From Candidatus Omnitrophota bacterium (lineage in GTDB: Bacteria; Omnitrophota; Gorgyraeia; Zapsychrales; Zapsychraceae), in assembly GCA_023247445.1 (NCBI GenBank), contig JAHFGL010000002.1, positions 64,553-128,552 of the forward strand: a stretch of DNA of 64,000 nt. Reading direction: 5' to 3'. Position numbers and translations under genes: made by a program. The notes beneath the pieces were generated by a model that saw nothing but the letters and a program-made list of their open reading frames with translations, had not been told where the DNA came from and searched no databases. Below are positions 21,419 through 62,659 of this stretch, one piece after another. How positions within the stretch are numbered: position 1 is the stretch's first letter; every line of letters begins with the position of its first letter.

Positions 21419-21490
21419 GCGTCATTCTGAGCGAAGCGAAGAATCCCAGTCGATCGAGATTCTTCGGCCCTTTGGGCCTCAGAATGACGG
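21419..21490. repeat. palindromic structured repeat, copy 1 (cgtcattctgag...ctcagaatgacg)
   Basis: terminal inverted repeats cgtcattctgagcg/cgctcagaatgacg with internal hairpins gaagaatc/gattcttc and ggccctttgggcc. Confidence 0.8.
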
Positions 21491-21630
21491 AATACGATGA
21501 ACGACATTAGTCTTGCCGAACTTCTCTGGAGAATCGTTGAAGGCTCTTAAGCGAATAATAATATGCTTAAACTCCGTTCCTTATCTTAGATATTGCAAAT
21601 TTTGCATGGCGAAGGATATAATGTCCTCCT

Positions 21631-24600
21631 ATGAAGAGCTCCCCATCGAATGCGTTTTCATTCCCTGAAGTCAGAGTTGTTGAAGCCAGCGCCGGTTCCG
21701 GCAAAACTTTTGCCCTCGCCAAACGTTATATCCAACTTCTTCTTCACCCGTCTTTAACGGTTGACTCCATTCCGATGCGCTCGATTTTGGCAATTACCTT
21801 TACCAACAAAGCTGCCTTCGAGATGAAATCGCGTATTTTGGAATTCTTAAAGTGTATAGCGCTCAAGAAATTATCCGCCGCGCAAGACAATGAGATTCTA
21901 AAGCCGCTAGGGATTAGCCAAGAAGAGGCGAGTGGCAAGGCCTTTCAAATCATGGAGGTCTTGATCCATCATTACAATTTCTTTCAGGTTCAAACTATCG
22001 ACAAATTTATTAACGCGCTTCTTTCCGGATGTGCTTTTAAAATTGGATTAACCGCCAACTTTAAAATTAAAACGAATTCTTACGAATATCTCGAATACAG
22101 CTTGGATCAATTGATCGATCAGGCGGCCCACCACAAAGAATTATCTAAGATATTTCAATATTTTCTTCACAACTATTTGTATCTTGAAAATCGGACGGGC
22201 TGGTTCCCGAAAGAGGATATGCTTTCGATTATGCTGGCCCTTTTTCGTCATCACAATACTTATGGGCTGGATTTTAAGAAAAGTTCGTTGACTCCGGAAG
22301 ATTTGATTAAGAAAAAGAAATCAATCTTGGCGGAGATGAAGACACTACGTTCTATCTTGCCAGAATCGACAGATTTACGTTTTGTTAAGAGTTTTGATAA
22401 GTTCTTGGCGAACACATCAGGCACTTTCGATGTCGATAGTTTGTCAGATTATTTCTTACGCGAGGCGATTCCTATCAAGAAAGGAACAGAAGTTTCTGAT
22501 GAGGCTGACAAACTTTGGGTCAAGATACGAAGTGGAATCCAACAAGTTTGTGAAGAAGAGGCCTATTCACTTTTTAATCCGTATGTTCAGTTGTATTCGT
22601 ATGTCGCCACAAATTTTTATCAGCTTTCGGCCAAAGATGATGTGCTATTTTTGGAGGAATTAAATAAAAGGGCGAGCCGACTTTTTGATAATGAGTATGT
22701 AACGGTTGAAGAACTTTATTTTCGTCTGGCAACGCGTTTTCGTCATTACTTAATTGATGAGTTTCAAGACACCAGCCGCCTGCAGTGGCTTAACATTGAG
22801 AAAATGGCCGAAGAGGCGTTGGCCACCGGCGGATCACTCTTTTATGTGGGCGATCGTAAGCAGGCGATTTATGGATTCCGCGGTGGAGAAGTCACGCTTT
22901 TTGATCAACTTAAAACACAATTTGATGCCTTTAATATTAAAGTCGATTATCTGACCAACAATTGGCGCAGCCAGCGTGCGATTGTCGAATTTAATAATTC
23001 TATTTTCTCCCTCGATAATTTGAAACGATTTATTCGCGAAAAGGAAACCTATGAAGAAGAGAAAAATAAGCGCGGGATGATTGCCTTTAGTGATGACGAT
23101 TTTAACGCGCTGGCCGATATCTTTAAAGGCGCGCAGCAAACGTTTCAGCCGAAGTACAAAGATGGTTACGTCAAAATCGAATATATTGGCTTGGACAAAA
23201 AGGAAGATCGCGATGAAGAAATTCGCACGAAGGTCGTCAGCCTTGTGAAAGATTTACGCAATCGATTTTCTTATCGCGACATCGCAATCTTGACTCGCAG
23301 CAACCAGCAAATTGAGGATTTAACTAACTGGCTCTTGGCCGAAGGAATCTTGGTCGAGTCGGAACGTACCTCTAGCGTCAAAGAGAATCATCTGATTAAA
23401 GAATTGATTTCTTTCCTGAAGTTTTTAGATTCTCCTATCGACAATCTTTCGTTTGCCTCATTTATCCTGGGTGATATTTTCAAGAAGGCCTCGGGATTGT
23501 CAGAATCTGAATTACACACCTTTGTCTTTAAATCACGTGAGCACTTGGCCAATAACAAAGATGCTTATTTATACATGGCGTTTCGGCAGGCGTATCCAGA
23601 AGTTTGGGAGCGTTTGATTAATGAGTTTTTCAAAAATGTCGGACTGTATCCATTGTATGAACTGGTCATTAGCATTTATCATCGATTGAATTGTTTGATT
23701 AATTTTTCCGAGGCGCAAGGATTCTTGATGCACTTTCTTGAACTCATCAAAGAAGAGGAAGAAGATCACGGCGACATCACGTCATTTCTTGATTATTTTG
23801 AGCAGTTGGAGGGCGCCGATTTATTTGTTGCGGTGACCGATACGGATGCGGTCAAAATATTGACAGTTCACAAGGCGAAGGGTTTGGAATTTCCCATCGT
23901 TATAATTCCGTTTCTAGGAATGGACGTTCAGGTTGGGTCGCAGGGCGCGGATCAGCAGCAATCGTATATTGTTAAACGGGATAGTGCCGCCATTGAGCTC
24001 ATTCGTCTTAAGACTAAATATTTAAGCTTTTCAGAGGAGCTGTATCAAATTTATGCGGATGAATATAAGAAGGCGCTGCTTACGGAATTAAATAATGTTT
24101 ATGTCGCGTTAACCCGCGCGCAGTATGAGCTGTATGCTTTTATTCCCAAAAGAATTCAAAACAGTTTTAATCTGGTCAAGTTTCTTATCCCTGAAGATAA
24201 TTTTGAAGCGGGTGTGCAGCACACCTATGATATCAAGCTGTCAGCTGCTGATTCGATCAAGCAATTGCCGCCTTCGCAATATCATGATTGGATTGATTAT
24301 TTGAAGGATGAGTTTTTAGATTTAAACGAACTTAAGAATAGAGAAGAAAGGCGCCGGGGGGAAATTTTACATTTTATGTTATCGTTTGTGGGAAATCTGA
24401 AAGAGGCGAATAAGAAGGAAATCATCCATCGCGCCGCCCAAGAAGCAAAAACACATTTTGCTCAAACAGCTGACTTAACCGCGCATGTTAACTTATTAAA
24501 CCAGTTGTTGGATGAGCCTGCGCTCAAACAATTCTTTTATGTTGATGCGGATGTTAAGACCGAACAGGATGTGGTCAATGCTGTTGGACATCCCAAGCGA

Positions 24601-24789
24601 ATTGATCGGCTTATTATTAAAAAAGATGAAATTATCGTCGTTGATTACAAAAGTTCAGCCCATCCGCAAGATGTGTATCGGGATCAGGTCAAAGATTATT
24701 GTTTAATTGTCCGCGAGATGTATCCGAAGCATCGCGTGAAGGGATATTTGATTTATTTAGATAGTTTTAAGGTTGAAGAAGTTCTCTGA
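21631..24789 (+). CDS. AddA/RecB-like helicase-nuclease (UvrD helicase domain plus C-terminal PD-(D/E)XK nuclease)
   Basis: Walker A ASAGSGKTFAL, FTNKAAFEM, DEFQDTS, GDRKQAIYGFRGG, TVHKAKGLEFPIV, C-terminal IIVVDYKSS nuclease motif. Confidence 0.8.
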   Translation: MKSSPSNAFSFPEVRVVEASAGSGKTFALAKRYIQLLLHPSLTVDSIPMRSILAITFTNKAAFEMKSRILEFLKCIALKKLSAAQDNEILKPLGISQEEASGKAFQIMEVLIHHYNFFQVQTIDKFINALLSGCAFKIGLTANFKIKTNSYEYLEYSLDQLIDQAAHHKELSKIFQYFLHNYLYLENRTGWFPKEDMLSIMLALFRHHNTYGLDFKKSSLTPEDLIKKKKSILAEMKTLRSILPESTDLRFVKSFDKFLANTSGTFDVDSLSDYFLREAIPIKKGTEVSDEADKLWVKIRSGIQQVCEEEAYSLFNPYVQLYSYVATNFYQLSAKDDVLFLEELNKRASRLFDNEYVTVEELYFRLATRFRHYLIDEFQDTSRLQWLNIEKMAEEALATGGSLFYVGDRKQAIYGFRGGEVTLFDQLKTQFDAFNIKVDYLTNNWRSQRAIVEFNNSIFSLDNLKRFIREKETYEEEKNKRGMIAFSDDDFNALADIFKGAQQTFQPKYKDGYVKIEYIGLDKKEDRDEEIRTKVVSLVKDLRNRFSYRDIAILTRSNQQIEDLTNWLLAEGILVESERTSSVKENHLIKELISFLKFLDSPIDNLSFASFILGDIFKKASGLSESELHTFVFKSREHLANNKDAYLYMAFRQAYPEVWERLINEFFKNVGLYPLYELVISIYHRLNCLINFSEAQGFLMHFLELIKEEEEDHGDITSFLDYFEQLEGADLFVAVTDTDAVKILTVHKAKGLEFPIVIIPFLGMDVQVGSQGADQQQSYIVKRDSAAIELIRLKTKYLSFSEELYQIYADEYKKALLTELNNVYVALTRAQYELYAFIPKRIQNSFNLVKFLIPEDNFEAGVQHTYDIKLSAADSIKQLPPSQYHDWIDYLKDEFLDLNELKNREERRRGEILHFMLSFVGNLKEANKKEIIHRAAQEAKTHFAQTADLTAHVNLLNQLLDEPALKQFFYVDADVKTEQDVVNAVGHPKRIDRLIIKKDEIIVVDYKSSAHPQDVYRDQVKDYCLIVREMYPKHRVKGYLIYLDSFKVEEVL

Positions 24790-24794
24790 GTTTT

Positions 24795-24869
24795 CGTCAT
24801 CCTGAGCGTAGCGAAGGATCCCAGAATATCTTAAATGCTTTGAGATTCTTCGCTGCGCTCAGAATGACG
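24795..24869. repeat. palindromic structured repeat, copy 2
   Basis: cgtcatcctgagcgtagcgaaggatc ... gagattcttcgctgcgctcagaatgacg. Confidence 0.8.
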
Positions 24870-24871
24870 TC

Positions 24872-25180
24872 TTGAGGATATTTGTATATATGGATAAGCA
24901 ATCATATGTTTATATTTTATCTAACAAAAGCAACTCGGTTTTATACACCGGCGTTACGAGTGATCTAATAAAGAGAATTTATGAGCATAAGCATAAGTTG
25001 GCTGATGGATTCACAAAGAAATATAACGTAGATAAATTAGTATATTTTGAAGTTTTTGACGATATTGAACAGGCTATATTGCGGGAGAATCAAATTAAGG
25101 GATGGGTAAGAGTTAAGAAATTGGCCTTAATTGAATCGAAGAATTCGAATTGGAAAGATTTATATGGAAATATTTTATGA
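24872..25180 (+). CDS. small GIY-YIG nuclease family protein (UPF0213-like, 102 aa)
   Basis: YVYILSNKSNSVLYTGVTSDLIKRIYEHK (GIY-YIG core) ... ILRENQIKGW; flanked on both sides by repeat-element halves. Confidence 0.75.
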   Translation: MRIFVYMDKQSYVYILSNKSNSVLYTGVTSDLIKRIYEHKHKLADGFTKKYNVDKLVYFEVFDDIEQAILRENQIKGWVRVKKLALIESKNSNWKDLYGNIL

Positions 25181-25212
25181 GATCCTTCGTCCCTTCGGGA
25201 CTCAGGATGACG
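25181..25212. repeat. half-copy of the palindromic repeat (right arm)
   Basis: gatccttcgtcccttcgggactcaggatgacg matches right arm of the cgtcatcctgag family. Confidence 0.7.
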
Positions 25213-28017
25213 GAGCGTAAAGTGAATAAAATTATCACTTACAGTTTTTGTGAACCGTTTATCGATCGCCTAGCCGATTATCTTGAAGAGAATTATATTA
25301 AAAAAGGTAAGGATCTTGGACGTGTGGCTATTGTCTTTGGCGGTAAGAGACCGAGTCTCTTTACAAAACGCGAGTTGGCTCGGCGCATCAAAAAGAGTTT
25401 TTATCCACCACGATTTTTTACGATCGATGAATTTGTGGGTTATACCATTCAAAAGAAAGAAGCCTTTAGCGCGCCGCAGGATTTGGACAGCTGCTATTTT
25501 TTATATCAGCTGATTTCAAAAGTTACGCCTGATCTTTTGAAAGGCCGAAACACCTTCGCGCAATTTCTGCCGTGGACACGCGAGATGTTATCATTTATCG
25601 ATCAGCTTGATTTAGAGATGATTGACGATGATGTTCTCAAAAATATTCAGATCAATGCCCAGATTGGTTACGCTGTTCCAACGGATATTAATCAAATGCT
25701 GCAAAGCATTATTAAGTTAAGAAATATTTATCATGATGAGCTTAAGGAAAAGAAGGTTTATACGCGCGGGTTTCAATATCTTCGTGCGGCGCAGGTTATT
25801 GATCAGGTTGATTTTAAAGAATTTGATGACATTTTGTTTTGTAACTTTTTTTATTTTCACCGAACAGAAGAGGCGATTGTAAAGAAACTCTACGATCAAG
25901 GCCAAGCGACATTAATTTTCCAGGGCGATCAACGTAAATGGCCGATTTTTACACGTATCGCTAAGAATTTTTCCTGCACGATCGAAGAGGGAAAGACCGT
26001 TGACATTCCGCAGTTTGACTTAAAATTATATCAAGGTGGTGACGTTCATGCCCAGGTCTGTCATGTCCGGGAAATTTTAAAAACAATTAAACATCTGGAT
26101 CGTACGGTCATCGTTCTTCCCAATCCTGATCATATCATCCCGCTTCTTTCTGAAATCACCGCCATTGCCAAAGATTTTAATATCTCGATGGGGTATCCAC
26201 TTAAGCGCAGCAGTCTTTATTCGCTGTTTGAATTTGTTTTTAAGACTCAGCTATCCCGACGTCAGCATGAATATTATGCGAAGGATTATTTAAAAGTTTT
26301 GCGTCATCCGTTTGTAAAAAATTTGAGTTTGGCGGAGAGTCCAACGATTACGCGAACTTTGATTCATAAGATTGAAGAAATTTTAACCGGCAAAGAACCG
26401 TCGGCTCTTTCTGGCCAACTCTTCTTTGAGTTGGAAGACATGGAAAGCTTAGATGAGCTTTTTATGTTAACACTCGAATCACTTGATCGATTGGGCATCA
26501 AAAGTAATCGCGATCAGTTACTTTTGATTTTGGAAGAGATTCATAATCTATTTTTCTTAGAATGGGAAAAGATTAATAATTTTGCCGTGTTTGCAGTTGT
26601 TTTAGAAAATTTTCTAGATGTTCTTATCGAAAAAAGCTTTCTCAAGAATTATCCATTGAATCTTAACATCGCGACGAAGATGTATGCGATTAAAGATGAA
26701 TTGGCGCAGACATCTTTTAAGGAAGAACATTTTTCCGCAGAAGAAATATTTAGAATCTTTGACGGAAAAATCAGCAGGGAAATGGTGGCCTTTGTTGGAT
26801 CTCCGCTACGAGGTTTGCAGGTCTTGGGTCTTTTTGAAACACGATCACTTAACTTTGAAAATGTTATTGTGCTCGATGTCAACGAAGGGACGTTACCAAA
26901 CTTGCGCATCTATGAACCGCTTATCCCGCGAGAAGTGATGATTAGCCTAAGTCTTGATCGATTGGAGCTGGAAGAAGAGATTCAGCGCTATCAATTCATG
27001 CGACTTATCTCGTCCGCAAAAAATGTACATTTAGTTTATCAACAGAGTAAAGATAAAGAACGAAGTCGATTTGTTGAAGAGCTTGTTTGGGAAAAGCAGA
27101 AGGAACTTAAGACATTAGATGTTCTGCCGATTGAACAGGCGAGTTTCGCTGTCCATGTTTCCTCGCAGAAAATAAGTGTTAAGAAGACAAAAGAAATGAC
27201 GGAATATCTAAGGCAAATTAAATATTCCGCGACGAGTATTAATACGTATCTGCGCAACCCTTTAGAATTTTATTACAAATATGTTTTGGGTTTGAAAGAA
27301 GAGGAAGACTTGTTAGATGAGCCGGAGGCGAGGCAAGTGGGGACGTTTGTCCATGAACTTTTGGAGGCAGCCTTTACACCGTTTTTAAAACGTAAACCGG
27401 AGATTAATGCTCACTTTCGCGAGCGATTTGCGCGGATGTTTGAAGAAAGATTTACAAACACCTTTGGCCGCAGCATGAAATCAGATTCATTTTTGTTAAA
27501 ATCCGTTTTAGTGGAACGGTTAAATCGATTTTTAGATAATGAACAATTTAATGAAGACCGCGCCGTTGAAGAAATTTTATATTTAGAGAATCATTTTGAA
27601 GATGTGGTTCCTCTTTCGTGCGGTGACATAAAGTTTCGTTATATCGTTGATCGCGTTGATCGTTTAAAAGACGGAACGATTGCGATCATTGACTATAAAA
27701 CAGGAAGCATTAATCAGATGCCCAAAGACATTAGTCGGATTTTGTCCACTTCCTCTTCGCGCGAATCGATTCGAGACAACGTTCGGTCTTTTCAAATTCC
27801 GCTTTATTTCTATTATCTCGACAAACAATATACAAATCAGCCCATCAATGCTGTTTTATATAATTTGAGAACTTTAGAGTTGCATCGTTTTATCGATGAT
27901 AAAATGACGTACAGCCGTGAGCAAATTAATAATGGATTTCTAAAGGCGTTAGATTTTATCATTACTGAAATCATAAACCCTGATGTGCCGTTTGTGGAAG
28001 ATCAACCACCCTATTAA
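25207..28017 (+). CDS. AddB-like PD-(D/E)XK nuclease/inactivated-helicase subunit
   Basis: C-terminal RecB-type nuclease motifs GTFVHELLE ... IAIIDYKTG; partner of upstream AddA-like gene; ORF track start 25150 lies inside the repeat (peptide ..GLRMTE), so ATG 25207 is preferred. Confidence 0.65.
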   Translation: MTERKVNKIITYSFCEPFIDRLADYLEENYIKKGKDLGRVAIVFGGKRPSLFTKRELARRIKKSFYPPRFFTIDEFVGYTIQKKEAFSAPQDLDSCYFLYQLISKVTPDLLKGRNTFAQFLPWTREMLSFIDQLDLEMIDDDVLKNIQINAQIGYAVPTDINQMLQSIIKLRNIYHDELKEKKVYTRGFQYLRAAQVIDQVDFKEFDDILFCNFFYFHRTEEAIVKKLYDQGQATLIFQGDQRKWPIFTRIAKNFSCTIEEGKTVDIPQFDLKLYQGGDVHAQVCHVREILKTIKHLDRTVIVLPNPDHIIPLLSEITAIAKDFNISMGYPLKRSSLYSLFEFVFKTQLSRRQHEYYAKDYLKVLRHPFVKNLSLAESPTITRTLIHKIEEILTGKEPSALSGQLFFELEDMESLDELFMLTLESLDRLGIKSNRDQLLLILEEIHNLFFLEWEKINNFAVFAVVLENFLDVLIEKSFLKNYPLNLNIATKMYAIKDELAQTSFKEEHFSAEEIFRIFDGKISREMVAFVGSPLRGLQVLGLFETRSLNFENVIVLDVNEGTLPNLRIYEPLIPREVMISLSLDRLELEEEIQRYQFMRLISSAKNVHLVYQQSKDKERSRFVEELVWEKQKELKTLDVLPIEQASFAVHVSSQKISVKKTKEMTEYLRQIKYSATSINTYLRNPLEFYYKYVLGLKEEEDLLDEPEARQVGTFVHELLEAAFTPFLKRKPEINAHFRERFARMFEERFTNTFGRSMKSDSFLLKSVLVERLNRFLDNEQFNEDRAVEEILYLENHFEDVVPLSCGDIKFRYIVDRVDRLKDGTIAIIDYKTGSINQMPKDISRILSTSSSRESIRDNVRSFQIPLYFYYLDKQYTNQPINAVLYNLRTLELHRFIDDKMTYSREQINNGFLKALDFIITEIINPDVPFVEDQPPY

Positions 28018-28018
28018 G

Positions 28019-28585
28019 ATGAGCGCTAACCTTAAGAAAAATAAAATTTGGTTATTCTTCAAACGATTGTTTATTGTTTTTACTTTGCTAGTATTTTTGT
28101 GCGGATTTTTAAGTTGGTATGCAATCACGCATTTGATGGACAGTAAAGAGCCACGCGTTTGTTTTTTGTATACGCAGAAATATCCTTTTCCCGATATTTT
28201 ATTTAAGATAAGTGCGGTTCCCTTGGCGCTAACTTCTTATGTTGTTTACAGAAAAGATGTTTTTAAGATTGATGCCCTGCGTTGGCCTAGAGTTTTGGAA
28301 GCCTTTAAGAAGGCCGAGTTTCTTATTATCGGAACACATGGTGAGAATGGTGATTTTCTGACGGATGACAATGTTTGGATCCAACCCAATGGTGAGATTC
28401 ATCCACAGCTTAAATTTCTTTATTTTGGTTCGTGCGATATTGGGAGAAAGCAAGCACAGTGGCAACGCAAGTTTCCTCAAGCAACCCTCAAAAGCGTTAA
28501 TCGCCTTTATAATCCAAAAGAAGGCGGAGTCTACATGGTGTTTCAGTCAAGTCTCGATCTTATTCGAATGAAAATGACAAAGTAA
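28019..28585 (+). CDS. hypothetical membrane-anchored protein
   Basis: ORF with N-terminal hydrophobic helix (LFFKRLFIVFTLLVFLCGFLSWYAI); start chosen after AddB stop. Confidence 0.35.
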   Translation: MSANLKKNKIWLFFKRLFIVFTLLVFLCGFLSWYAITHLMDSKEPRVCFLYTQKYPFPDILFKISAVPLALTSYVVYRKDVFKIDALRWPRVLEAFKKAEFLIIGTHGENGDFLTDDNVWIQPNGEIHPQLKFLYFGSCDIGRKQAQWQRKFPQATLKSVNRLYNPKEGGVYMVFQSSLDLIRMKMTK

Positions 28586-31913: not shown

Positions 31914-31965
31914 TGTCATCCCCGTGAAAACGGAGATCTAGATACCCGCTTTCGCGGGTATGACA
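31914..31965. repeat. palindromic structured repeat, copy (tgtcatccccgtgaaaacggagatc...acccgctttcgcgggtatgaca)
   Basis: termini tgtcat/atgaca with two internal hairpins. Confidence 0.7.
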
Positions 31966-32845: not shown

Positions 32846-32900
32846 GTTATGGGGAATAGGGTATAGGTGCTAGTTGAAGTTATTTTAACTAAAATCTTTT

Positions 32901-32932
32901 AAACCCTAAACCCTAAATCCTAAACCCTAAAA
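32901..32932. repeat. four tandem telomere-like heptads (CCCTAAA CCCTAAA TCCTAAA CCCTAAA) immediately upstream of ileS start
   Basis: aaaccctaaaccctaaatcctaaaccctaaaa directly abuts ATG 32933; no Shine-Dalgarno. Confidence 0.8.
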
Positions 32933-38059: not shown

Positions 38060-38909
38060 TCTTTTCTTAACACAAAATCTTCCTGATGCGCCTTCCCGCA
38101 GTTTTGTCCAAAAGCTGATTGAGTCGGGGTATGTCAGCGTGAATAATTCGATTGTTAAATCGAAATATAAAATAACAGAAGGGGATACTATCTCCGTTGA
38201 TGTTCCTGAAGAGTTTTTGGCACCGGAAAATATCGAACCGGAAAATATTCCCTTAAATATTTTTTATGAAGATGATCATTTACTGGTGATCAATAAACCT
38301 ATTGGCATGCTTGTTCATCCGGCGAGTGGCTGTAATACGGGAACTCTCGTTAACGCGCTTCTACACCATTGTCAGCAACTTTCGGATTTTAATTCTCCAC
38401 TGCGCGCGGGTATTGTCCATCGGTTAGATAAAGAAACATCCGGATTAATTATTGTCGCGAAAGATAATACAACGCATGCCAAGCTTGCCAGGCAATTTCA
38501 AAAGCATACCATCAGAAAGAAATATTTAGCTTTGGTCGAAGGGCAAATTGAATTTGATGAAGGGATGGTCGATGTGCCTTTGGGCCGTCATGAAAAACAT
38601 CATGATAAGAAGATTGTTAGTTTTGAAGAATCAGCAAAAGAGGCCTTAACATATTATAAAGTTATCAAGCGCGTTAAGGGCACGACACTCGTTGCCTTGT
38701 TTCCACAAACTGGACGAACGCATCAGCTGCGCGTTCATATGGCTTATTTAAAGCATCCGATTTTAGGCGATAGCAAATATGGCAAAAGAGATAATTTTGA
38801 GCGTTTAGCGCTACATGCGCAAGCGATAGGTTTTATCCATCCCTTTCGAGCGTGTTATCTTGAGTTTTCAACTAAGCCACCAAAGGAATTTTTGGAAAGA
38901 GTTAAGTGA
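37998..38909 (+). CDS. RluA/RluD-family pseudouridine synthase with S4 domain
   Basis: QRLDLFL S4 motif; catalytic HRLDKETSGLIIVAK; alternative start ATG 38007. Confidence 0.8.
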   Translation: MLFMSTHVLKVEPPSINQRLDLFLTQNLPDAPSRSFVQKLIESGYVSVNNSIVKSKYKITEGDTISVDVPEEFLAPENIEPENIPLNIFYEDDHLLVINKPIGMLVHPASGCNTGTLVNALLHHCQQLSDFNSPLRAGIVHRLDKETSGLIIVAKDNTTHAKLARQFQKHTIRKKYLALVEGQIEFDEGMVDVPLGRHEKHHDKKIVSFEESAKEALTYYKVIKRVKGTTLVALFPQTGRTHQLRVHMAYLKHPILGDSKYGKRDNFERLALHAQAIGFIHPFRACYLEFSTKPPKEFLERVK

Positions 38910-39026
38910 CCCCTCGGGAATTCTTTCCCGAGGGGTCATCCTGAGGAACGGCTGCCTGCCGCAGGCAGAAGTGACGAAGGATCTCCTAGGAGATCCTTCA
39001 GTCGCTTTTGCTCCTTCAGGATGACG
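38907..39026. repeat. compound palindromic repeat (gacccctcggga hairpin + gtcatcctgagg...ccttcaggatgac element with perfect 24-nt palindrome gaaggatctcctaggagatccttc)
   Basis: multiple nested inverted repeats; same termini family as other copies. Confidence 0.8.
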
Positions 39027-45478: not shown

Positions 45479-45555
45479 AGGTTTGTCACAAAGTCACCAA
45501 GTCACAAGGTCACCAAATTATGGTGACTTGGTGTCAGGTGACCTGTGACCTTGTG
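45479..45555. repeat. hairpin composed of eight GTCAC(C/A) units in inverted arrangement
   Basis: gtcacaaagtcaccaagtcacaaggtcacc aaattat ggtgacttggtgtcaggtgacctgtgaccttgtg fills the mrdA-rodA intergenic region. Confidence 0.75.
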
Positions 45556-49025: not shown

Positions 49026-49026
49026 T

Positions 49027-50736
49027 ATGAGCAAGACCTTAAAAGAGCGTATTTTAAAAACCTTGATCGATACTCAGAAATTAAAAAAAGAAGATATCGA
49101 TGAGGCAATGACGTTACAGAAAAAGAAGGGCATTAGTTTCGAAAAGGCTTTGATCGAGAAGGATTTGGTTAAAGAAAAAGATTTGTTGCTACTATTGGTA
49201 CGTGAGCTCAACATCCCTTTTATCAATTTAAATAAATATAGAATTGATCCAAATTTAAAAGAAATTGTTCCTGAGCGCATTGCCCGCCTTTATCACATTA
49301 TTCCCCTTTCTCTTTTGGAGTACACGTTAACGGTTGCTATCTCGGATCCCCTTAATATTTTTGTCATCGATGATCTTAAGAATATTACTGGAAAAGAAAT
49401 TGATGTGGTTATTAGCACGGATTCTGATATTGCCAAGGCCATTGATACGTATTATGGAACACAGGCGGCGGCGACCCTCAAAGAAATCAGTCAAGAGGTA
49501 AAGGCTGGAGAGCTAGAGATTGTTTCTGCTCATGATGTGGATGAAGAAATTGGTGGGGTTGTCGATGAAAGCCAAAAAGCGCCAATTATCCGCATGGTCA
49601 ATTTGATTATCAAGGAAGCGATTCGTCAGCGCGCGTCGGATATTCATATGGAACCGATGATTGATGGCATGCGCGTTCGTTACCGTATTGATGGAATTCT
49701 ACAAGATATTTTAAATGTTCCCAAGGTCAATCAGAACGCCGTTATTGTGCGCATTAAGATTATGGCGCAACTAGATATCACCACCGGCCATATCCCACAA
49801 GACGGCCGGTTTAAATCAAAAATGTCCGACAAGGAAATTGATTTTCGCGTATCGTTATTGCCAACGATCTATGGACAAAAAGTTGTTATGCGGGTATTAG
49901 ATAAAGGAAATCTTGCCGTTGGATTAAATGGGCTCGGTGTTTCACCAAAATCACTAGCTGTTTTAGAAGAGGCGATCAAAAAACCTTTTGGAATGATTTT
50001 GGTAACCGGGCCAACAGGAAGCGGTAAATCAACAACGCTTTATTCCATCGTCAATGAACTTAATACGGTTGATAAAAATATTGTCACCATTGAAGATCCT
50101 GTTGAATATTTGATTGAAGGTTTAACACAAATTCAAGCCCGTCCAGATATTGGATTAACCTTTGCGGAAGGTTTACGGGCGACACTTCGCCAAAGTCCGG
50201 ATGTTGTCATGGTGGGGGAAATTCGTGACAATGAAACGGCTGACATTGCGATTAAGGCATCTCTAACGGGTCAATTGGTTTTTTCGACGCTGCACACCAA
50301 CGATGCCCCTGGGGCTCTGACGCGTTTAGTGGACATGGGCGTTGAGCCTTTTTTAGTGGCGTCTAGTTTGGTTTTAGTTAGTGCGCAGCGTTTGTGCCGA
50401 AAAATATGTTCGGCCTGTAAGGAATCTGTTAAGATCGACCAACATGTTCTTGATCGATTAGAGTATAAGTTTAAATCAGGGACACTTTTTTATCATGGTA
50501 AAGGTTGTGATAACTGTCGACATACGGGCTATCGAGGCCGAACGTGTATTACAGAAGTTTTAGACATTGATGATGAAATTCGTAATATGTTGTTAGCTGG
50601 GAAATCATCACAGATTATCAAGCAATATGCTCAAGAGAAAAAGGGAATGAATACGCTCTGGGAAGATGCCATTGAAAAATGTCTTGCGGGGATTACAACG
50701 TTAGAAGAAGTTTTGCGTGTTACAACGAAAGAATAA
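49027..50736 (+). CDS. type IV pilus/T2SS assembly ATPase PilB/GspE, copy 2
   Basis: Walker A GPTGSGKSTTLYS, tetracysteine CSAC...CDNC; N-terminal GspE_N-like domain. Confidence 0.9.
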   Translation: MSKTLKERILKTLIDTQKLKKEDIDEAMTLQKKKGISFEKALIEKDLVKEKDLLLLLVRELNIPFINLNKYRIDPNLKEIVPERIARLYHIIPLSLLEYTLTVAISDPLNIFVIDDLKNITGKEIDVVISTDSDIAKAIDTYYGTQAAATLKEISQEVKAGELEIVSAHDVDEEIGGVVDESQKAPIIRMVNLIIKEAIRQRASDIHMEPMIDGMRVRYRIDGILQDILNVPKVNQNAVIVRIKIMAQLDITTGHIPQDGRFKSKMSDKEIDFRVSLLPTIYGQKVVMRVLDKGNLAVGLNGLGVSPKSLAVLEEAIKKPFGMILVTGPTGSGKSTTLYSIVNELNTVDKNIVTIEDPVEYLIEGLTQIQARPDIGLTFAEGLRATLRQSPDVVMVGEIRDNETADIAIKASLTGQLVFSTLHTNDAPGALTRLVDMGVEPFLVASSLVLVSAQRLCRKICSACKESVKIDQHVLDRLEYKFKSGTLFYHGKGCDNCRHTGYRGRTCITEVLDIDDEIRNMLLAGKSSQIIKQYAQEKKGMNTLWEDAIEKCLAGITTLEEVLRVTTKE

Positions 50737-53495: not shown

Positions 53496-53782
53496 GGGAT
53501 AGGGGCAGTTTGACACCCCTCTGCCAGCATGTTATACTTTCGACGCAGATATGAAAGGGTAAACCTTCCGTAAGGATGGGACACAAAACTATAGGGCCCT
53601 ACAATAGAGGGCAGCCAGTTGCCAAGATGAGCGATTTTTGTGAACCTATTCCCAAAGAAGGAATAGGTTTTTTTATCAGTGTAGGAAAGTATATAGGAAT
53701 TTAGAAACTGCTAGAAAATTCCTTTCCTACACAGCAAAGAAGATATGACGAACGAAGTGAGGAATTTTCTTGTGAAAAGTCT

Positions 53783-54012: not shown

Positions 54013-54411
54013 ATGAAACGAACAAATCAAAGTGGTTTTACGTTAGTAGAAATTATGATCGTTGTTGCGATCATTGCGCTATTAGCGGCGATTGCAATTC
54101 CAAACTTACTTCGCGCTAAGATTTCAGCCAATGATGCCAACGCGCAGGCAACTTTGCGAAGTATGTCTACTGCTTCCGAAACTTTTGGAACAGCAAACAA
54201 TGGGAGTTATCCAGCAGCGGTCACCTCAATGGTTACAGGGTCTACACCACCCTATCTTAATAGTAACTATTGCGGGGTAACGATGGATGGGTATGCGTTT
54301 TCATGTACTAATACGACAGGTGCATATACTTATATCGCAACACCGACTACGGTAGGAACAACAGGGACGACAACCTACACAATGACAACAGGCGGAATTT
54401 TAACTCCGTAA
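54013..54411 (+). CDS. pilA: type IV major pilin (class III signal peptide)
   Basis: N-terminus MKRTNQSGFTLVEIMIVVAIIALLAAIAIPNLL; strong SD aaaaggagag; Thr/Gly-rich C-terminus. Confidence 0.85.
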   Translation: MKRTNQSGFTLVEIMIVVAIIALLAAIAIPNLLRAKISANDANAQATLRSMSTASETFGTANNGSYPAAVTSMVTGSTPPYLNSNYCGVTMDGYAFSCTNTTGAYTYIATPTTVGTTGTTTYTMTTGGILTP

Positions 54412-54439: not shown

Positions 54440-54476
54440 AAAAGGAGAGCTTGAATCAAGCTCTCCTTTTTATTTA
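54440..54476 (+). terminator. strong intrinsic terminator after pilA
   Basis: ggagagcttga-a-tcaagctctcc perfect 11-bp stem followed by tttttattt. Confidence 0.8.
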
Positions 54477-56894: not shown

Positions 56895-56909
56895 CTTTCG
56901 TCTCTGCTA

Positions 56910-57248: not shown

Positions 57249-57265
57249 TTAGGAGGATTTGTCTC

Positions 57266-58648
57266 ATGAAAAAATGGACTATTTTGTTTTTCGTAGTGCT
57301 AGGCTTAGCCTTTACGATTGTCCACGCACAGAATGAAACTAATTCACAAGTGATGGCAGAGTCATCGTCATCCACGGATGAAGCGGTATCAGCACCGCCC
57401 GCTATGGCAGAAAATGTTTCGATAACCAAAGAAGGAAATGTGAGTTTAGATTTTCGTGAGGCCGACATAAAAAATGTTTTACAAATTTTATCTTTTAAAA
57501 GTGGAATAAATATTGTCGCCAGTCCAGATGTCACAGGAATGGTAACGATTCAACTTAATGATGTTCCCTGGCAGCAAGCACTAGATGTTATTTTGCAAAC
57601 GTACGGTTACGCTTATGAGAAAAAGGGCAATGTTATTTTTGTTACAACGGTTGAAAATTTAAAAAAACGTCGAGATGATTCAGCAAGCTTGGCTGAACAG
57701 GAACCACTTGACACAGAAACATTTATCCTCAATTTTGCTAAAGCTTCCGATATCATTACCTCCGTTGAAAAAATGAAGTCAGATCGAGGGACGATTAATT
57801 TTGATCAACGCACGAACACAATTATTATCACGGATACACCTAAGAAAATTGAATTAATGGGAAAAGTGGTAAAAACTTTAGATACAACAACCCCACAAGT
57901 TCTTATTGAAGCAAAAATTGTTGAAACAACCTTTTCAGATACAGACAATCTTGGGGTTGATTGGTTAACTAAAGTGACGGTCAGTGGTGCAAAACGTGCT
58001 TCACAATTTCCATTTACCACGCATTCATCTAATAAATATCTCGAAGATAATGACATCCCGGTTGCGACAGAAACCGACTTTGAATATGGAACTTTAGATT
58101 TTAATCAAGTGCAGGCGGTTTTTGAGGCACTAAAGACTAAGAGTGATACGAATATTCTTTCTAGCCCGCATGTTGTGACTCAGGATAATAAGGCGTCGAC
58201 AATTGTTGTCGGTAGTCAGTATCCTATCCCAACATATACATTTAACGAAGAGCAAGCCCGTCTTCAGGTTTCGGGTTGGGAATATAAAGATATTGGGATT
58301 ATTTTTAACGTGACACCACACGTTAGCTCGGCTGGGTTTGTAACATTAGATGTTGAACCAAAGATTACAGCGATTTTGGATTTCGTAACTGTTGAAAATA
58401 CTTCACTGCCTCGACTCAGTAATGAATCAGCGAAAACAACCGTGATGGTCAAAGACGGAGAAACACTTGTCATTGCAGGGTTGGTTAAAAGTCAGAAGAC
58501 AGATACGAAAAAGAAAATTCCTTTCTTAGGTGATGTCCCCATTCTGGGATACGCCTTTCAGAAGTCTGAGGTCTCAACGACTAAAACGGATATGATGGTG
58601 TTTTTGACACCACACATCGTTACCCCCGAAATTCCCTCAACAAAGTAA
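57266..58648 (+). CDS. pilQ: type IV pilus secretin PilQ
   Basis: signal peptide, N0/secretin_N domains, C-terminal VKDGETLVIAGLVKSQKTDTKKKIPFLGDVPILGYAF...MVFLTPHIV. Confidence 0.85.
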   Translation: MKKWTILFFVVLGLAFTIVHAQNETNSQVMAESSSSTDEAVSAPPAMAENVSITKEGNVSLDFREADIKNVLQILSFKSGINIVASPDVTGMVTIQLNDVPWQQALDVILQTYGYAYEKKGNVIFVTTVENLKKRRDDSASLAEQEPLDTETFILNFAKASDIITSVEKMKSDRGTINFDQRTNTIIITDTPKKIELMGKVVKTLDTTTPQVLIEAKIVETTFSDTDNLGVDWLTKVTVSGAKRASQFPFTTHSSNKYLEDNDIPVATETDFEYGTLDFNQVQAVFEALKTKSDTNILSSPHVVTQDNKASTIVVGSQYPIPTYTFNEEQARLQVSGWEYKDIGIIFNVTPHVSSAGFVTLDVEPKITAILDFVTVENTSLPRLSNESAKTTVMVKDGETLVIAGLVKSQKTDTKKKIPFLGDVPILGYAFQKSEVSTTKTDMMVFLTPHIVTPEIPSTK

Positions 58649-58699
58649 GGATATTTTAGATATCCTTTCATGAAATCCACAGAATAAAAGAGGTGTATT

Positions 58700-60013
58700 G
58701 TGCCTAGGGAAATTCTTATTCAGATTCAAAAGGGCGAATGCCAAGTTGCCATTATTGAACATGGCCACGTTGATGACTTCTTTATTGAAGCGGATCGTTA
58801 TCAATCACTTTTAGGGAATATTTATAAGGGAAAAGTCGAATCGATTTTGCCATCAATTAATGCCGCCTTTGTTAATATCGGCCAACCGCGTAATGGATTT
58901 CTTTATTTGACGGATTCCGTTAGTCCAGAGATGGAAGAAGAGGCCCGACCTCCTCGACGATTTCTAGAAAAAATATTTAAAAAACCTAAAAAGGTTGAAG
59001 ATAAATCGAGGCATGCTAAAAAGCCGCAGGGAGATATTGCTTTTACCGTTGGTCAAGAAATTCTTGTTCAGGTGGTTAAAGATCCATTTGGCGAAAAAGG
59101 AGCGCGATTAACAACGCATGTTTCTTTACCTGGACGTTTTGTTGTCTACATGCCTTTTGATAAACAAACCGGAGTTTCTAAAAAGATTGATAATGTCGAG
59201 GAGCGACAAAGATTGCGTGAAGTTATTAAAGGTTTTACATTCGCTAGTGCGGGAGGTTTTATTATCCGTACCGCATCATCCAAACAGGGCAAGAATGAAC
59301 TTATCCGTGACGCCAAATTTCTTTATAAGCTTTGGGAAAAAATTTATAAAAAATTTGAACAGGAAAAAGCCCCAGCGCTAATTTATGAAGAAGGGGAACT
59401 AACCTGGAAGATTGTTCGTGATTGTTTGACGGATAAGGTTGATCAATTGATTATCGATTCTGCTGAAGAATGTGAGAAGATTAAAAAATTTGTTCATACG
59501 TTAATTGGCCCAGAGATGGTGCAGAAGATTCATCATTATAAAGGTGATGTGCCGTTATTTGAGGCTAAACATGTGGCGAAGGAGCTGAGCAAGATTTATG
59601 AGCCGAATGTTTATTGTAAATCTGGGGCGTATGTCGTTATTGAGCAAACGGAAGGACTCACTGTCGTTGACGTTAATAGCGGAAAATTTAAGCCCAAGGC
59701 TTCTCCTGAAGATGCTGCGTTTATGGTAAATATGGAAGTTGTTCCCGAAATTGCTCGGCAACTACGATTACGCGATTTAGGCGGCATTATTGTGATTGAT
59801 TTTATTGATATGTCACGCGATGATCACAAACGAAAAGTTTATGAATCGCTACAGCGATCGCTTTCGCGAGATCCCGCGAAAACAGAAGTTTACCGAATTT
59901 CGCCTTTAGGGATTGTAGAGATGACGCGCGCCCGAACCGGGAAAACCATTGAATCGATGTATTTTGGTCCTTGTCCTTACTGCGATGGTCGTGGTCGGGT
60001 TAAGTTTGCGTAG
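58700..60013 (+). CDS. rng: RNase E/G family ribonuclease (Rng-like)
   Basis: S1 domain GNIYKGKVESILPSINAAFVNIG, catalytic domain motifs VIEQTEGLTVVDVNSG. Confidence 0.8.
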   Translation: MPREILIQIQKGECQVAIIEHGHVDDFFIEADRYQSLLGNIYKGKVESILPSINAAFVNIGQPRNGFLYLTDSVSPEMEEEARPPRRFLEKIFKKPKKVEDKSRHAKKPQGDIAFTVGQEILVQVVKDPFGEKGARLTTHVSLPGRFVVYMPFDKQTGVSKKIDNVEERQRLREVIKGFTFASAGGFIIRTASSKQGKNELIRDAKFLYKLWEKIYKKFEQEKAPALIYEEGELTWKIVRDCLTDKVDQLIIDSAEECEKIKKFVHTLIGPEMVQKIHHYKGDVPLFEAKHVAKELSKIYEPNVYCKSGAYVVIEQTEGLTVVDVNSGKFKPKASPEDAAFMVNMEVVPEIARQLRLRDLGGIIVIDFIDMSRDDHKRKVYESLQRSLSRDPAKTEVYRISPLGIVEMTRARTGKTIESMYFGPCPYCDGRGRVKFA

Positions 60014-60029
60014 GGTTGATTTCGAAATT

Positions 60030-60101
60030 GTCATGCCCGAATGTTTTAATCGGGCATCCAGTTTTGTTCTCGCTTAGATCCCCACTTTCGTGGGGATGAC
60101 A
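60030..60101. repeat. palindromic structured repeat (tgtcatgcccgaatg...ggatccccactttcgtggggatgaca)
   Basis: near-identical to copy at 62582-62659. Confidence 0.8.
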
Positions 60102-60212
60102 GAGGCCAGGGTGAAAATAAATGTTGAAAAAACAGTCGAAATCAATTACATTAAGGCTTCTATTAAAAGGGACTTTTAGACGAATTTAAGTAGGTAAATC
60201 CAGGAGGTTATT

Positions 60213-60524
60213 ATGTTTGCTGTTGTTAAAGTGGGATCTTCCCAATACAAAGTTAAAGAAGGCGATACAATCGATACGTGTCGACTTAGTGAAGAAGAAG
60301 GTAATACAGTTACTCTTGATCAGGTCTTGATGGTAGCTAGCGAAAAGGATGTTCGCGTTGGCCAACCATTCTTAAAAGATGCCAAGATTACAGCTAAAAT
60401 TGTTCGACATATTAAGGCTGCGAAGGTCATTGCTTTTAAATTTCGCGCGCGTAAACATTTCCGTAATAAAAAAGCGCATCGCCGGGCGCTGACGACGATC
60501 AATATTACCAAGATTTCTGCATAA
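60213..60524 (+). CDS. rplU: 50S ribosomal protein L21
   Basis: MFAVVKVGSSQYKVKEGDTI...; strong SD caggagg. Confidence 0.9.
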   Translation: MFAVVKVGSSQYKVKEGDTIDTCRLSEEEGNTVTLDQVLMVASEKDVRVGQPFLKDAKITAKIVRHIKAAKVIAFKFRARKHFRNKKAHRRALTTINITKISA

Positions 60525-60533
60525 AAGAATACC

Positions 60534-61514
60534 ATGATATTTGTTGATGAAGCCACAATCACTGTCAAAGCAGGCGATGGGGCCAAGGGCTGTGAAAGCT
60601 TCTATCGCGATTTGTATATGCGCTATCGCCGTCCTGATGGCGGAGATGGTGGCAGGGGCAGTGATATAATCTTCATGGCTGCCCGTGGTGTTCAAACCCT
60701 CCTCGATTTTAAAATCAAACAAAAATGTACAGCCTCAAGAGGCGGCAATGCCAGTAGCAGTAATAAAAAAGGAAAAGATGGCGCGCCTTGTATTTTGAAG
60801 GTCCCCGTTGGCACAATTATCCGCGATGCTGAAACAGGATTTTTAATTAAAGATTTATCGGCCGATACGCAATCGGTCATTGTTGCGCGCGGCGGAGCCG
60901 GCGGTCGTGGGAATAATAAAGGAAGAACAGTCACGCCACCGCAGCTCGGTGAACAGCGTCGCATTAAACTCGAATTAAAACTCATTGCTGATGTCGGTCT
61001 TGTTGGGTTTCCAAACGCTGGTAAATCAACACTCATTTCAAATATCTCGCGCGTTAAATCAAAGATCGCTAATTATCCGTTTACCACAAGACAGCCGATT
61101 TTAGGGATTGTCTATGTTGATGATTTTAGTTTTGTTGTTGCTGATTTACCTGGTATTATTGAAGGGGCACATCAGGGACGAGGATTGGGCGATCGATTTT
61201 TGCGCCACGCGGAACGGACAAAGGTTCTTGTCCATTTAATTGATATGGCTGGATCTGAAGGACGTGACCCACTTGATGATTACAAAAAGATTAATTACGA
61301 ATTAAAAGCGTACGCTGAAGAACTTTTTTATAAGCACAAAATTGTTGTGGCGAACAAAATGGATCTTGACGGTGCCCAGGAAAATTTAAAACGTTTTAAA
61401 AAGAAACATAGAATTAAGATTATCCCAATTTCCGCGATTGAAAAAGAAGGGCTAACGGAGTTGGTAGAAAAGATTAAGGATCTTTTGTGCAAAGAACATT
61501 CCCTAGAAAAATAA
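60534..61514 (+). CDS. obg: GTPase Obg/CgtA
   Basis: N-terminal glycine-rich Obg fold FVDEATITVKAGDGAKGCESF..PDGGDGGRGSDIIF, G1 GFPNAGKST, G3 DLPG, G4 NKMD. Confidence 0.9.
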   Translation: MIFVDEATITVKAGDGAKGCESFYRDLYMRYRRPDGGDGGRGSDIIFMAARGVQTLLDFKIKQKCTASRGGNASSSNKKGKDGAPCILKVPVGTIIRDAETGFLIKDLSADTQSVIVARGGAGGRGNNKGRTVTPPQLGEQRRIKLELKLIADVGLVGFPNAGKSTLISNISRVKSKIANYPFTTRQPILGIVYVDDFSFVVADLPGIIEGAHQGRGLGDRFLRHAERTKVLVHLIDMAGSEGRDPLDDYKKINYELKAYAEELFYKHKIVVANKMDLDGAQENLKRFKKKHRIKIIPISAIEKEGLTELVEKIKDLLCKEHSLEK

Positions 61515-62575
61515 AACGAATTGTTATTAAGGTCGGCTCGAGCGTCATTGCAACCTACGCGATGAAGCCCAAGGTCGCGCACCTGCGTTCGTTGGTTAAA
61601 CAGATTTGTACGGTGCAGCGGCAGGGCATTGAAGTAATTTTGGTTAGTTCCGGCGCAATTGTCTTAGGAATGGGCGAATTAAATCAGCGCAAACGTCCGT
61701 CGGATTTGGCCTCACTGCAAGCGTTGGCGGCGATCGGTCAAACGGTTCTTATGCGGACGTATTCAGATTTGTTTAAGAAAAATAAATCCGGCTGCGCGCA
61801 GGTTCTCTTAACGTGGGAAGATTTTGATAACCGCGAACGATTTAATAATGCGAATAATACTTTTGGCGCGATTATTGAGCGCGGCATTGTGCCGGTTGTT
61901 AACGAAAATGACACAATCGCAACTGATGAGATTAAGTTTGGTGACAATGATCGTTTATCATCATTGGTAGCAAGTTTGGTCCACGCGGATTTGCTCCTTA
62001 TTCTTTCAGATGTCGAAGGTCTTTATGATTTGCGAACATCCGACAAAAAATTATTTGATGAAATTAAAGAGATTACCGCCGAGATTGAAGGCGTTGCTTC
62101 GGGTTCAACGAATAAGAATATTTCTAAAGGTGGGATGAGCGCGAAACTTAACGCGATAAAGATTGCGACGCACGCAAACGTTCCTTGTGTCATTGCTCAC
62201 GGAGAAACAGAGAATGTTTTGCTACGGATTTTAAAAGGTGACCGAATTGGAACATTTTTTATGGAACGCGAGGAAAAACTTATCGCGAAGAAGCATTGGA
62301 TTTCCTTTGGCTCGAAACCCAAAGGTTCTATTGTTATTGATGACGGTGCGCGAGAAGCTCTTTTAAAAGGCGGAAAGAGTTTACTTTTGCCAGGTGTCGT
62401 TTCCTGGGATGGACATTTTAAGGCGGATAGTGTGGTTGTCATTTATGATAAGAAGAGTCAGGAAATTGGTCGCGGATTAATTAACTACTCGACGGCTGAT
62501 TTATATAAAATTGAAGATAAAAAAGGTAAGCAAGAAGTTATCCACTGTGATAATTTAGTTTTGTCGCAGCGATAA
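61487..62575 (+). CDS. proB: glutamate 5-kinase with PUA domain
   Basis: RIVIKVGSSVI, amino-acid kinase fold, C-terminal PUA. Confidence 0.9.
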   Translation: MQRTFPRKIKRIVIKVGSSVIATYAMKPKVAHLRSLVKQICTVQRQGIEVILVSSGAIVLGMGELNQRKRPSDLASLQALAAIGQTVLMRTYSDLFKKNKSGCAQVLLTWEDFDNRERFNNANNTFGAIIERGIVPVVNENDTIATDEIKFGDNDRLSSLVASLVHADLLLILSDVEGLYDLRTSDKKLFDEIKEITAEIEGVASGSTNKNISKGGMSAKLNAIKIATHANVPCVIAHGETENVLLRILKGDRIGTFFMEREEKLIAKKHWISFGSKPKGSIVIDDGAREALLKGGKSLLLPGVVSWDGHFKADSVVVIYDKKSQEIGRGLINYSTADLYKIEDKKGKQEVIHCDNLVLSQR

Positions 62576-62581
62576 GCAGTT

Positions 62582-62659
62582 TGTCATCCCCGAATGCATT
62601 AATCGGGGATCTTAGCAAATTATTACTATTTCTGGATCCCCACTTTCGTGGGGATGACA
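62582..62659. repeat. palindromic structured repeat (tgtcatccccgaatgcattaatcggggatc...gatccccactttcgtggggatgaca)
   Basis: termini tgtcatc/gatgaca; hairpins ccccga..tcgggg and ccccac-tttc-gtgggg. Confidence 0.8.

Follow-up and report, generated by a model that had tools for sequence, protein, structure and literature searches.

Paired intergenic palindromes of an Omnitrophota bacterium as probable recognition hairpins of a resident Ssn-type GIY-YIG nuclease

Ssn proteins are small single-domain GIY-YIG nucleases, and a gene of this family, accompanied by a set of palindromic intergenic repeats, is found in the stretch of 64,000 nucleotides (64 kb) from an uncultured Omnitrophota bacterium studied here, which we call the window. 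The protein of Neisseria meningitidis, SsnA, is a 94-amino acid (aa) single-domain GIY-YIG nuclease of CDD family cd10448; its target is the NTS (CGTCATTCCCGCGMAVGCGGGAATCYRG, a sequence containing the dRS3 palindrome), which it binds in single-stranded form only, cutting the DNA a few nucleotides (nt) upstream (Chenal et al., Nat Commun 2025; PMC11893778). According to the same work the three bases before the palindrome mainly affect cleavage and the C after it mainly affects binding, and the mutants Y6A, Y17A and E64A keep binding and lose cutting; the homologues found across bacteria have "Ssn-related motifs" (SRM) on their flanks, the meningococcal system reduces transformation by NTS-bearing DNA, and the NTS-ssnA-NTS layout was likened by the authors to an insertion sequence (PMC11893778). 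The enzymes characterised so far come from Neisseria and Wolbachia (PMC11893778).

Our analysis indicates that the repeats of the window are very probably SRMs, that is, recognition hairpins for the Ssn single-strand nuclease encoded among them. They are a further example of this already known system and not a new one; the new points are that one of their two subfamilies (A) lies outside the published SRM pattern, that the units are paired, and that the copy number of the arrays varies between strains. As in the described system, a palindrome of the form AT...AT is preceded by GTC and followed by C, is intergenic and present in multiple copies, and flanks a gene for a single-domain GIY-YIG protein of about 95 aa with the same three key residues. 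The window differs in that almost all of its units stand in outward-facing inverted pairs, that two motif classes accompany one visible nuclease gene, and that its host is an uncultured Omnitrophota bacterium, apparently neither symbiont nor pathogen.

The ssn gene occupies positions 24890-25180 of the + strand and encodes 96 aa, in which Pfam detected the GIY-YIG domain (PF01541, residues 5-75, E 2.7e-17) and no other; NCBIfam returned only a sub-threshold match to a group I intron endonuclease. The AlphaFold2 model (pLDDT 87) has a GIY-YIG fold, its best PDB matches being UPF0213, Slx1 and the N-terminal domain of UvrC; no Ssn entry was found among the solved structures of the PDB, either by sequence or by fold. 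When the protein was compared with PLSDB (7.3 Gb) by tblastn, two N. gonorrhoeae chromosomes were matched (E 3e-24). The gonococcal locus (NZ_CP119140.1, 1880778-1884056; L163 in our numbering of loci) contains a 94-aa open reading frame (ORF) with Y6, Y17 and E64 lying amid 16 NTS units in 3.3 kb, and we take it for these reasons as the likely SsnA orthologue. Both proteins align without gaps over 93 residues with 49% identity (E 6e-35), a value well within the homology threshold of PMC11893778 (E < 1e-10 to Neisseria SsnA), here applied to the N. gonorrhoeae and not the N. meningitidis protein. Residues Y8, Y19 and E66 of the window protein align with Y6, Y17 and E64 and are invariant in 23 homologues of the family alignment. 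Judged by these comparisons the ORF at 24890-25180 is an SsnA-family nuclease with a predicted cleavage activity. Its close metagenome homologues number in the thousands, mostly on very short contigs, and those with a name are largely from Omnitrophota. As a side remark, PLSDB files the 2.17-Mb N. gonorrhoeae chromosome NZ_CP119140.1 as a plasmid, and NZ_CP119142.1 likewise.

To describe the repeats we used a structural definition of the unit: GTC, a mismatch-free stem of 5 bp or more that begins with A[TC], a loop of 3-30 nt, and C. Eleven units of this kind are present in the window (shuffle mean 1.3), all within the seven copies that a sequence-only reading of this DNA had listed; all seven copies are present, with coordinates that agree within 1-2 nt, and the two subfamilies it had distinguished are real. 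With the definition relaxed to admit a single stem mismatch or a longer loop, the units at 31915(+) and 38935(+) are gained, for a total of 13, along with eight long-looped, noise-like matches inside genes. These 13 units, 24-49 nt long, form six outward-facing (+,-) inverted doublets plus a single (-) unit at 25181-25211; what had been taken for a half copy at the latter place is one complete unit on the minus strand, each of the other copies being two inverted units, and the long palindromes reported earlier are a consequence of this inverted pairing. All units share one plan, 5'-GTC followed by a stem that opens with AT and closes with AT, and then C.

In subfamily A the stem is AT(T/C)CT (5 bp), the internal loop is GAG/CGA, and the hairpin ends in a GCGAAGC-type cap or a nested mini-hairpin. 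The doublet at 21421-21488 consists of a left unit, GTC-ATTCT-GAGCGAAGCGA-AGAAT-C (21421-21445, +), and a right unit whose loop holds a nested GGCCC/GGGCC mini-hairpin (21458-21488, -). In the doublet 24796-24868, which begins 7 nt past the stop codon of the addA-like gene, the left unit (24796-24820, +) has the stem ATCCT/AGGAT and the right one (24844-24868, -) ATTCT/AGAAT, so that they differ at stem position 3, where each unit nevertheless keeps a base pair of its own through a compensating change. The single unit (25181-25211, -) begins 1 nt after the ssn stop codon, with the stem ATCCT/AGGAT and a nested GTCCC/GGGAC mini-hairpin. The last doublet of this subfamily, 38935-39025, pairs a left unit with a 38-nt loop (38935-38983, +), which contains an extra hairpin CTGCCTG-CCG-CAGGCAG at 38952-38968, with a right unit at 38992-39025 (-). 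The copy had been drawn earlier as 38907-39026; the doublet stands, and 38908-38937 proved to be a separate abutting perfect 13-bp hairpin (GACCCCTCGGGAA-TTCT-TTCCCGAGGGGTC), which overlaps the stop codon of the rluD-like gene and the GTC of the next unit. This hairpin provides the GTC of the adjacent SRM unit, and its form GTG-ACCCC...GGGGT-C resembles the GTCAC-type units of some loci. A 24-nt perfect palindrome that had also been reported was located at 38977-39000. Palindromes of the CTGCC...GGCAGG type like that at 38952-38968 adjoin SRMs downstream of ssn in an Ignavibacteriaceae locus (L071) and at 10300-10470 of a Smithella locus (L034), and they may be a separate tiny element landing in SRM loops.

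Subfamily B is NTS-like. Its first doublet joins a left unit whose stem has one mismatch (31915-31938, +) to the right unit GTC-ATACCCGC-GAAA-GCGGGTAT-C (31941-31964, -). Between the genes for RNase G and L21 the left unit has the stem ATGCCCGA/TCGGGCAT and a 9-nt loop (60030-60058, +), and the right unit is GTC-ATCCCCAC-GAAA-GTGGGGAT-C (60077-60100, -); between proB and proA the left unit has the stem ATCCCCGA/TCGGGGAT (62583-62611, +), and the right one (62635-62658, -) is identical to 60077-60100. This right unit, GTCATCCCCACGAAAGTGGGGATC, is one compensated base pair apart from the gonococcal NTS variant GTCATTCCCACGAAAGTGGGAATC, with which it shares the 8-bp stem, the 4-nt GAAA loop and the flanks. 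Compared with the Neisseria NTS/dRS3 elements, the window has the stem ATCCCC instead of ATTCCC, left units with 9-nt loops, and about one locus per 9 kb as against the 16 units in 3.3 kb around the gonococcal ssnA.

The repeats are clearly in excess over chance. Pairs of the form GTCAT[CTG]C...G[AGC]ATGAC within 260 nt occur five times in the window with 0.3 expected from shuffles; GTCATYCTGAG with at most one mismatch has eight matches (1.1 expected, none of 100 shuffles reaching eight), and CGAAGRATC also has eight (1.4 expected). Non-coding DNA, with the main ORFs masked, makes up 6.1% of the window and contains all seven repeat loci, in line with the earlier statement that they are strictly intergenic; for the unit 25181-25211 this depends on GTG 25222 being the start of the addB-like gene. 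The automatic gene call places that start at ATG 25177 and thus reads through the SRM unit (MRSFVPSGLRMT...); GTG 25222, preceded by GGAG, looks like the true start. Agreement with two independent ENA assemblies (L001, L162), which match the window across 21554-28297 and 58970-61898 and include three of the seven loci (the doublets 24796 and 60029 and the single unit 25181), shows that those three are no assembly artefacts, the possibility that had been raised for the repeats.

The window genes are without exception on the + strand, and the doublets lie between a fatty-acid hydroxylase and a UvrD-PD-(D/E)XK helicase-nuclease (AddA-like) gene (21421), between proC (pyrroline-5-carboxylate reductase) and a PNP-family phosphorylase (31914), between a RluD-like gene and one of unknown function (38935), between RNase E/G (RNase G) and rplU (L21) (60029), and between proB (glutamate 5-kinase) and a ProA-like member of the aldehyde dehydrogenase family (62583). 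The remaining doublet (24796) and the single unit (25181) are arranged as AddA-like/GIY-YIG/AddB-like. The gene names given earlier for the proC, rluD, RNase G and proB junctions were right. It can also be observed that ssn and its units separate two genes that form an AddA-like/AddB-like helicase-nuclease pair (21631-28017).

The features that are experimentally important in SsnA are those most constant here: GTC stands immediately 5' of the palindrome and C immediately 3' of it in 13 of 13 units, the base before GTC being C or T in 12. Twelve units pair perfectly over a stem of 5-8 bp, the other (31915+) having a single mismatch that is not at stem position 3. This position is T-A, C-G, A-T or G-C across units and is compensated within the unit in all 13, and in three of the six doublets (24796, 31914 and 60029) the left and right arms mismatch each other at it; the short hairpin is therefore what is preserved and not the long one. 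Moreover, the spacers between paired units are unrelated among copies, whereas the units are conserved. The conserved functional object is thus the 24-49-nt half unit and not the whole long palindrome. Folded as single-stranded DNA, all 13 units adopt the same register of three flanking bases, GTC and stem, and the hairpins of subfamily B are significantly stable (-7.7 to -9.4 kcal/mol).

A different account would have the palindromes act mainly at the RNA level, as terminators or as barriers to 3'-exonucleases which stabilise the upstream mRNA in the manner of the repetitive extragenic palindromic (REP) elements of Escherichia coli, the nuclease gene being incidental. The genes on either side of every doublet point the same way, and all doublets would be transcribed, five of them beginning 2-17 nt past a stop codon and the sixth at 42 nt, and their RNA folding is strong (-25 to -82 kcal/mol, z-scores -4.5 to -11). 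The compensation just described, however, maintains pairing in the short stems of the units; it does not maintain the long stem, by which RNA folding would be dominated. The hairpins are not followed by a U-tract, only the inner palindrome 38976-38999 being terminator-like, and counts of terminator-like sites (15 and 10) are not above those of shuffles (17.7 and 6.6), so the earlier suggestion that the repeats are terminators is not supported. A role as RNA hairpins would also leave unexplained the GTC and C flanks that are conserved across phyla and track ssn. An Rfam scan at gathering and at permissive thresholds placed no family on the repeats and gave only chance matches to microRNA and snoRNA families. 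A purely RNA-level role as the primary function is hence unlikely. Membership among intrinsic terminators was likewise rejected, as a T-run follows only 38976-38999.

The association between gene and repeats extends well beyond the window. A scan of one genome per GTDB species gave at least 575 places homologous to ssn, and the counts that follow rest on the best 80 homologues, which are 58-73% identical to the window Ssn. They come from Omnitrophota, Dehalococcoidia, Cyanobacteria, Gastranaerophilales, Elusimicrobia, Brocadia/Kuenenia and Desulfobacterota, as well as from Helicobacter, Ignavibacteria, WOR-3, Cloacimonadota, Bacillota and others. A (+) unit lies within 150 nt upstream of ssn at 60 of the 80 loci and a (-) unit within 150 nt downstream at 58, with units on both sides at 45; overall, the loci hold 460 units in 1.10 Mb against 18 in shuffles, and unrelated proB loci, taken as a control, have 22 in 457 kb. 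In the raw flanks of most loci GTCATxxx...xxxATC closely precedes the start codon, and its reverse complement begins at the stop codon or overlaps it. Stems vary by lineage (ATTGC/GCAAT, ATTCT/AGAAT, ATCCT/AGGAT, ATTCCCGC/GCGGGAAT, ATTTC/GAAAT, ATATC/GATAT), with GTC and C constant. An unconstrained search for the best hairpin in the ssn flanks, which is noisy and often returns pairings between units, nevertheless gave a hairpin preceded by GTC in 23 of 77 upstream cases. Exact copies of the subfamily-A unit are also present in Omnitrophota, in an uncultured rumen bacterium and in two metagenome-assembled genomes (MAGs) of Bacillota, and the NTS consensus in precisely its published form is found on the flanks of homologues that share 62-63% identity with the window Ssn (L044, L054). 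For adjacent units the orientation "+-", universal in the window, is also the commonest in these loci (91, vs 69 "-+", 27 "++" and 17 "--"). Ssn proteins whose flanking units have a stem type in common resemble each other a little more (63.8% vs 58.5%), a difference reached by none of 2000 permutations and confounded by phylogeny; this is what co-evolution would predict, with the same confounding. Taken together with the SsnA-family assignment, these homologues bracketed by units across phyla argue for the earlier proposal that the repeats are targets of the co-located GIY-YIG nuclease.

The published SRM pattern, HGTCWYN(0-2)YYVSBRHN(0-5)WNVSBRGN(0-2)RNCYNB, is a search heuristic which its authors derived by hand from 29 genomes. 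In the window it fits only 31914-31941(+) and 31938-31965(-), that is, the two units of the first subfamily-B doublet with their flanks; in the 80 loci it has 20 matches and misses 442 of the 460 structural units, and only five of the 80 ssn genes have a match within 200 nt. Since a heuristic of this origin misses most units near ssn, we ascribe the mismatch to the limited reach of the pattern and class subfamily A as an SRM variant. Subfamily A, together with a sibling that has the ATTGC stem and otherwise the same build (5-bp stem, GAG/CGA internal loop, cap or nested mini-hairpin), is a motif class beyond the published pattern, yet with the experimentally important flanks.

Several observations weigh against reading the repeats as targets of the resident Ssn. 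Eleven of the 13 units, including all of subfamily A, miss the published pattern, and lone subfamily-A units, folded with standard DNA parameters, give hairpins of low stability (-1.9 to -2.7 kcal/mol), no better than shuffles despite their GCGAAGC-type loop. Altering the stem sequence with the hairpin kept abolished SsnA activity (PMC11893778), which makes it unlikely that one enzyme reads both subfamilies, and no second ssn copy or ssn pseudogene was found within the 64-kb window, leaving two motif classes with one visible gene. The orientation of units around the gonococcal ssnA is also different, the unit just downstream being on the + strand there, and the role in transformation is known for N. 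meningitidis only (PMC11893778).

If the repeats are nonetheless SRMs, as we consider very probable, a mechanism can be proposed by analogy with the experiments on the Neisseria and Wolbachia enzymes in PMC11893778. A unit would fold when its DNA becomes single-stranded, as in incoming transforming DNA, the lagging-strand template or repair intermediates; the 96-aa nuclease would bind the folded hairpin in a sequence-specific manner, the C after the stem being important for binding, and would nick a few nucleotides 5' of GTC, which would be important for cutting, whereas duplex DNA, RNA and the complementary strand would be ignored. Owing to the outward-facing pairing, either strand of a doublet carries one readable unit, whichever strand is exposed. 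The upstream doublet 24796-24868 and the thirteenth unit 25181-25211 bracket ssn between subfamily-A units, and A is probably the subfamily read by the window Ssn. The most plausible role, again by analogy with N. meningitidis, would be to restrict or shorten motif-bearing single-stranded DNA in transformation or recombination. Type IV pilus genes in the window (two for PilB-like ATPases, PilC, PilM and two secretins) are compatible with DNA uptake and no proof of it.

The repeats had been called REP- or MITE-like (miniature inverted-repeat transposable element), and in architecture, as intergenic, multi-copy inverted pairs, they are; family membership is another matter. That they are ordinary REP elements or bacterial interspersed mosaic elements served by a REP-associated tyrosine transposase (RAYT, a Y1 HUH enzyme), or MITEs derived from a DDE insertion sequence, is highly improbable. 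Their inverted pairs of short intergenic palindromes do resemble REP doublets forming hairpins (REPINs), in which two short inverted hairpin units likewise give a larger intergenic palindrome, a single-copy-like nuclease gene is flanked by its own units, and the hairpin is recognised in single-stranded DNA. But the bracketed gene here and in 60 of the 80 other genomes encodes a GIY-YIG hydrolytic nuclease instead of a transposase of the Y1 or DDE type, the units share with NTS the conserved GTC on their 5' side, the spacers are not conserved and no internal sequence is held in common; no target-site duplications were found, flanking direct repeats at the window repeats not exceeding 3 nt. As candidates in their own right, membership in the REP/REPIN-RAYT family was rejected on the flanked gene being GIY-YIG and not Y1 (not all window ORFs were scanned for RAYT), and that of MITEs derived from insertion sequences on the lack of flanking direct repeats >3 nt and the unrelated spacers. 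IS200/IS605 elements are similar in the recognition of subterminal single-stranded hairpins, the offset cleavage and the absence of target-site duplication; they differ in that their end hairpins are on the same strand, those of the window being on opposite strands, and in their covalent transposase intermediate, Ssn-type enzymes having no known joining activity. A literature search on GIY-YIG with palindromic, intergenic or MITE repeats and on the string GTCATTGCGAG gave only fungal mitochondrial or irrelevant papers.

A related question is whether the doublets are themselves mobile, as REPIN- or MITE-like non-autonomous elements, that is, ORF-less derivatives of an SRM-ssn-SRM unit copied in trans by Ssn as selfish DNA. 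This is compatible with their being Ssn targets, since it explains instead why doublets are numerous, and we hold it possible but doubtful. Outward-facing units bracket the ssn ORF at 45 of the 80 loci, an architecture like that of an insertion sequence, as remarked in PMC11893778. Two contigs of one MAG (L043 and L063) have only a 468-nt ssn unit in common, with 99% identity and unrelated flanks, and in several pairs of species nothing but the ssn unit, of about 310-430 nt, is shared. At the L034 locus a nested palindromic insert of about 170 nt with an inner doublet splits an SRM which is intact at the syntenic L032 site; identical 25-nt units occur in different phyla; most ssn homologues are on very short contigs, as with repeated DNA; and the proB/proA junction of the nearest ProB relative is without a doublet. 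On the other side, the lack of target-site duplications and the unrelated spacers set the doublets apart from recently copied MITEs or REPINs, only one cleavable unit is present on each strand of a doublet, and no clean pair of filled and empty sites was found for any window doublet. GIY-YIG enzymes are hydrolytic nucleases and are not known to carry out strand transfer or joining. The metagenome scan for ProB gave one relative 69% identical and others at most 49%, too distant for exact insertion boundaries, and when the exact Ssn and L21 proteins were looked up, every match came from the same population and had the same spacing.

Variation within arrays was seen in ten metagenome contigs (L164-L173) encoding an identical Ssn protein (P0106), all with the same gatB-ssn-pilin-like-...-dnaB context. 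Their SRM array after ssn spans 129-562 nt, the number of doublets ranging from 0 to at least 3; its junctions are consistent with unequal recombination, and one scaffold has an N-gap exactly at the array; SRM arrays after ssn are unstable and break assemblies. Such length variation beside an identical Ssn is explicable by unequal recombination between tandem doublets, which counts against copying by the nuclease. The stronger proposal, that SRM doublets and the SRM-ssn-SRM unit form a class of mobile element spread by a GIY-YIG single-strand nuclease and not by a transposase or recombinase, via single-stranded intermediates or nick-induced copying, and that subfamily A with its ATTGC sibling is its most widespread form across phyla, not captured by the published pattern, we regard as more doubtful still. 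Overall we give mobility about a quarter to a third of our credence; no follow-up on Ssn mobility was found in the literature after the Ssn paper.

With the repeats read as SRMs, the Ssn/SRM system characterised in Neisseria and Wolbachia is extended to an uncultured Omnitrophota bacterium. The nuclease clade nearest the window Ssn is paired in many phyla with a motif class which the published pattern largely misses, so that pattern may understate the association between nuclease and motif. Each new nuclease-motif pair is a candidate sequence-specific cutter of single-stranded DNA, the window offering two motif classes and one enzyme, and the questions of mobility and of spread by a hydrolytic nuclease can be approached through the paired units, the arrays whose length differs by strain and the ssn units found in otherwise unrelated surroundings. 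In practical terms, gene callers read through SRM units, as with the addB-like start at 25177, and produce spurious N-terminal extensions.

Further features of the window concern its pilus genes and other repeats. A c-di-GMP-I riboswitch (Rfam RF01051, 60 bits, E 3e-9) is located at 53548-53626 (+), in a 517-nt gap upstream of the ORF 54013-54411 and at the head of the PilM...secretin type IV pilus cluster. Two tandem PilB/GspE-type ATPase paralogues (47274-50736, DNA segments about 72% identical) and two secretin genes (1750-3624 and 57266-58648) imply that parts of more than one pilus or secretion system are in the window. The 2137-aa ORF at 13911-20324 has as its only Pfam signal a weak, sub-threshold phosphoribosyltransferase. 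Tandem TAAACCC heptamers (4.6 copies, 32900-32931) stand directly before the ATG at 32933, and a 129-nt near-palindrome (4915-5043) with 64-nt arms, 81% complementary, and heptamers of the AAACCCT/ATTTAGA type fills the gap before the gene at 5053; these heptamer repeats are a second intergenic family, unrelated to the SRMs. Finally, a tandem octamer, GTCACAAA, is present in 3.6 copies at 45485-45516, in the intergenic space between an ORF end at 45476 and an ORF start at 45558.

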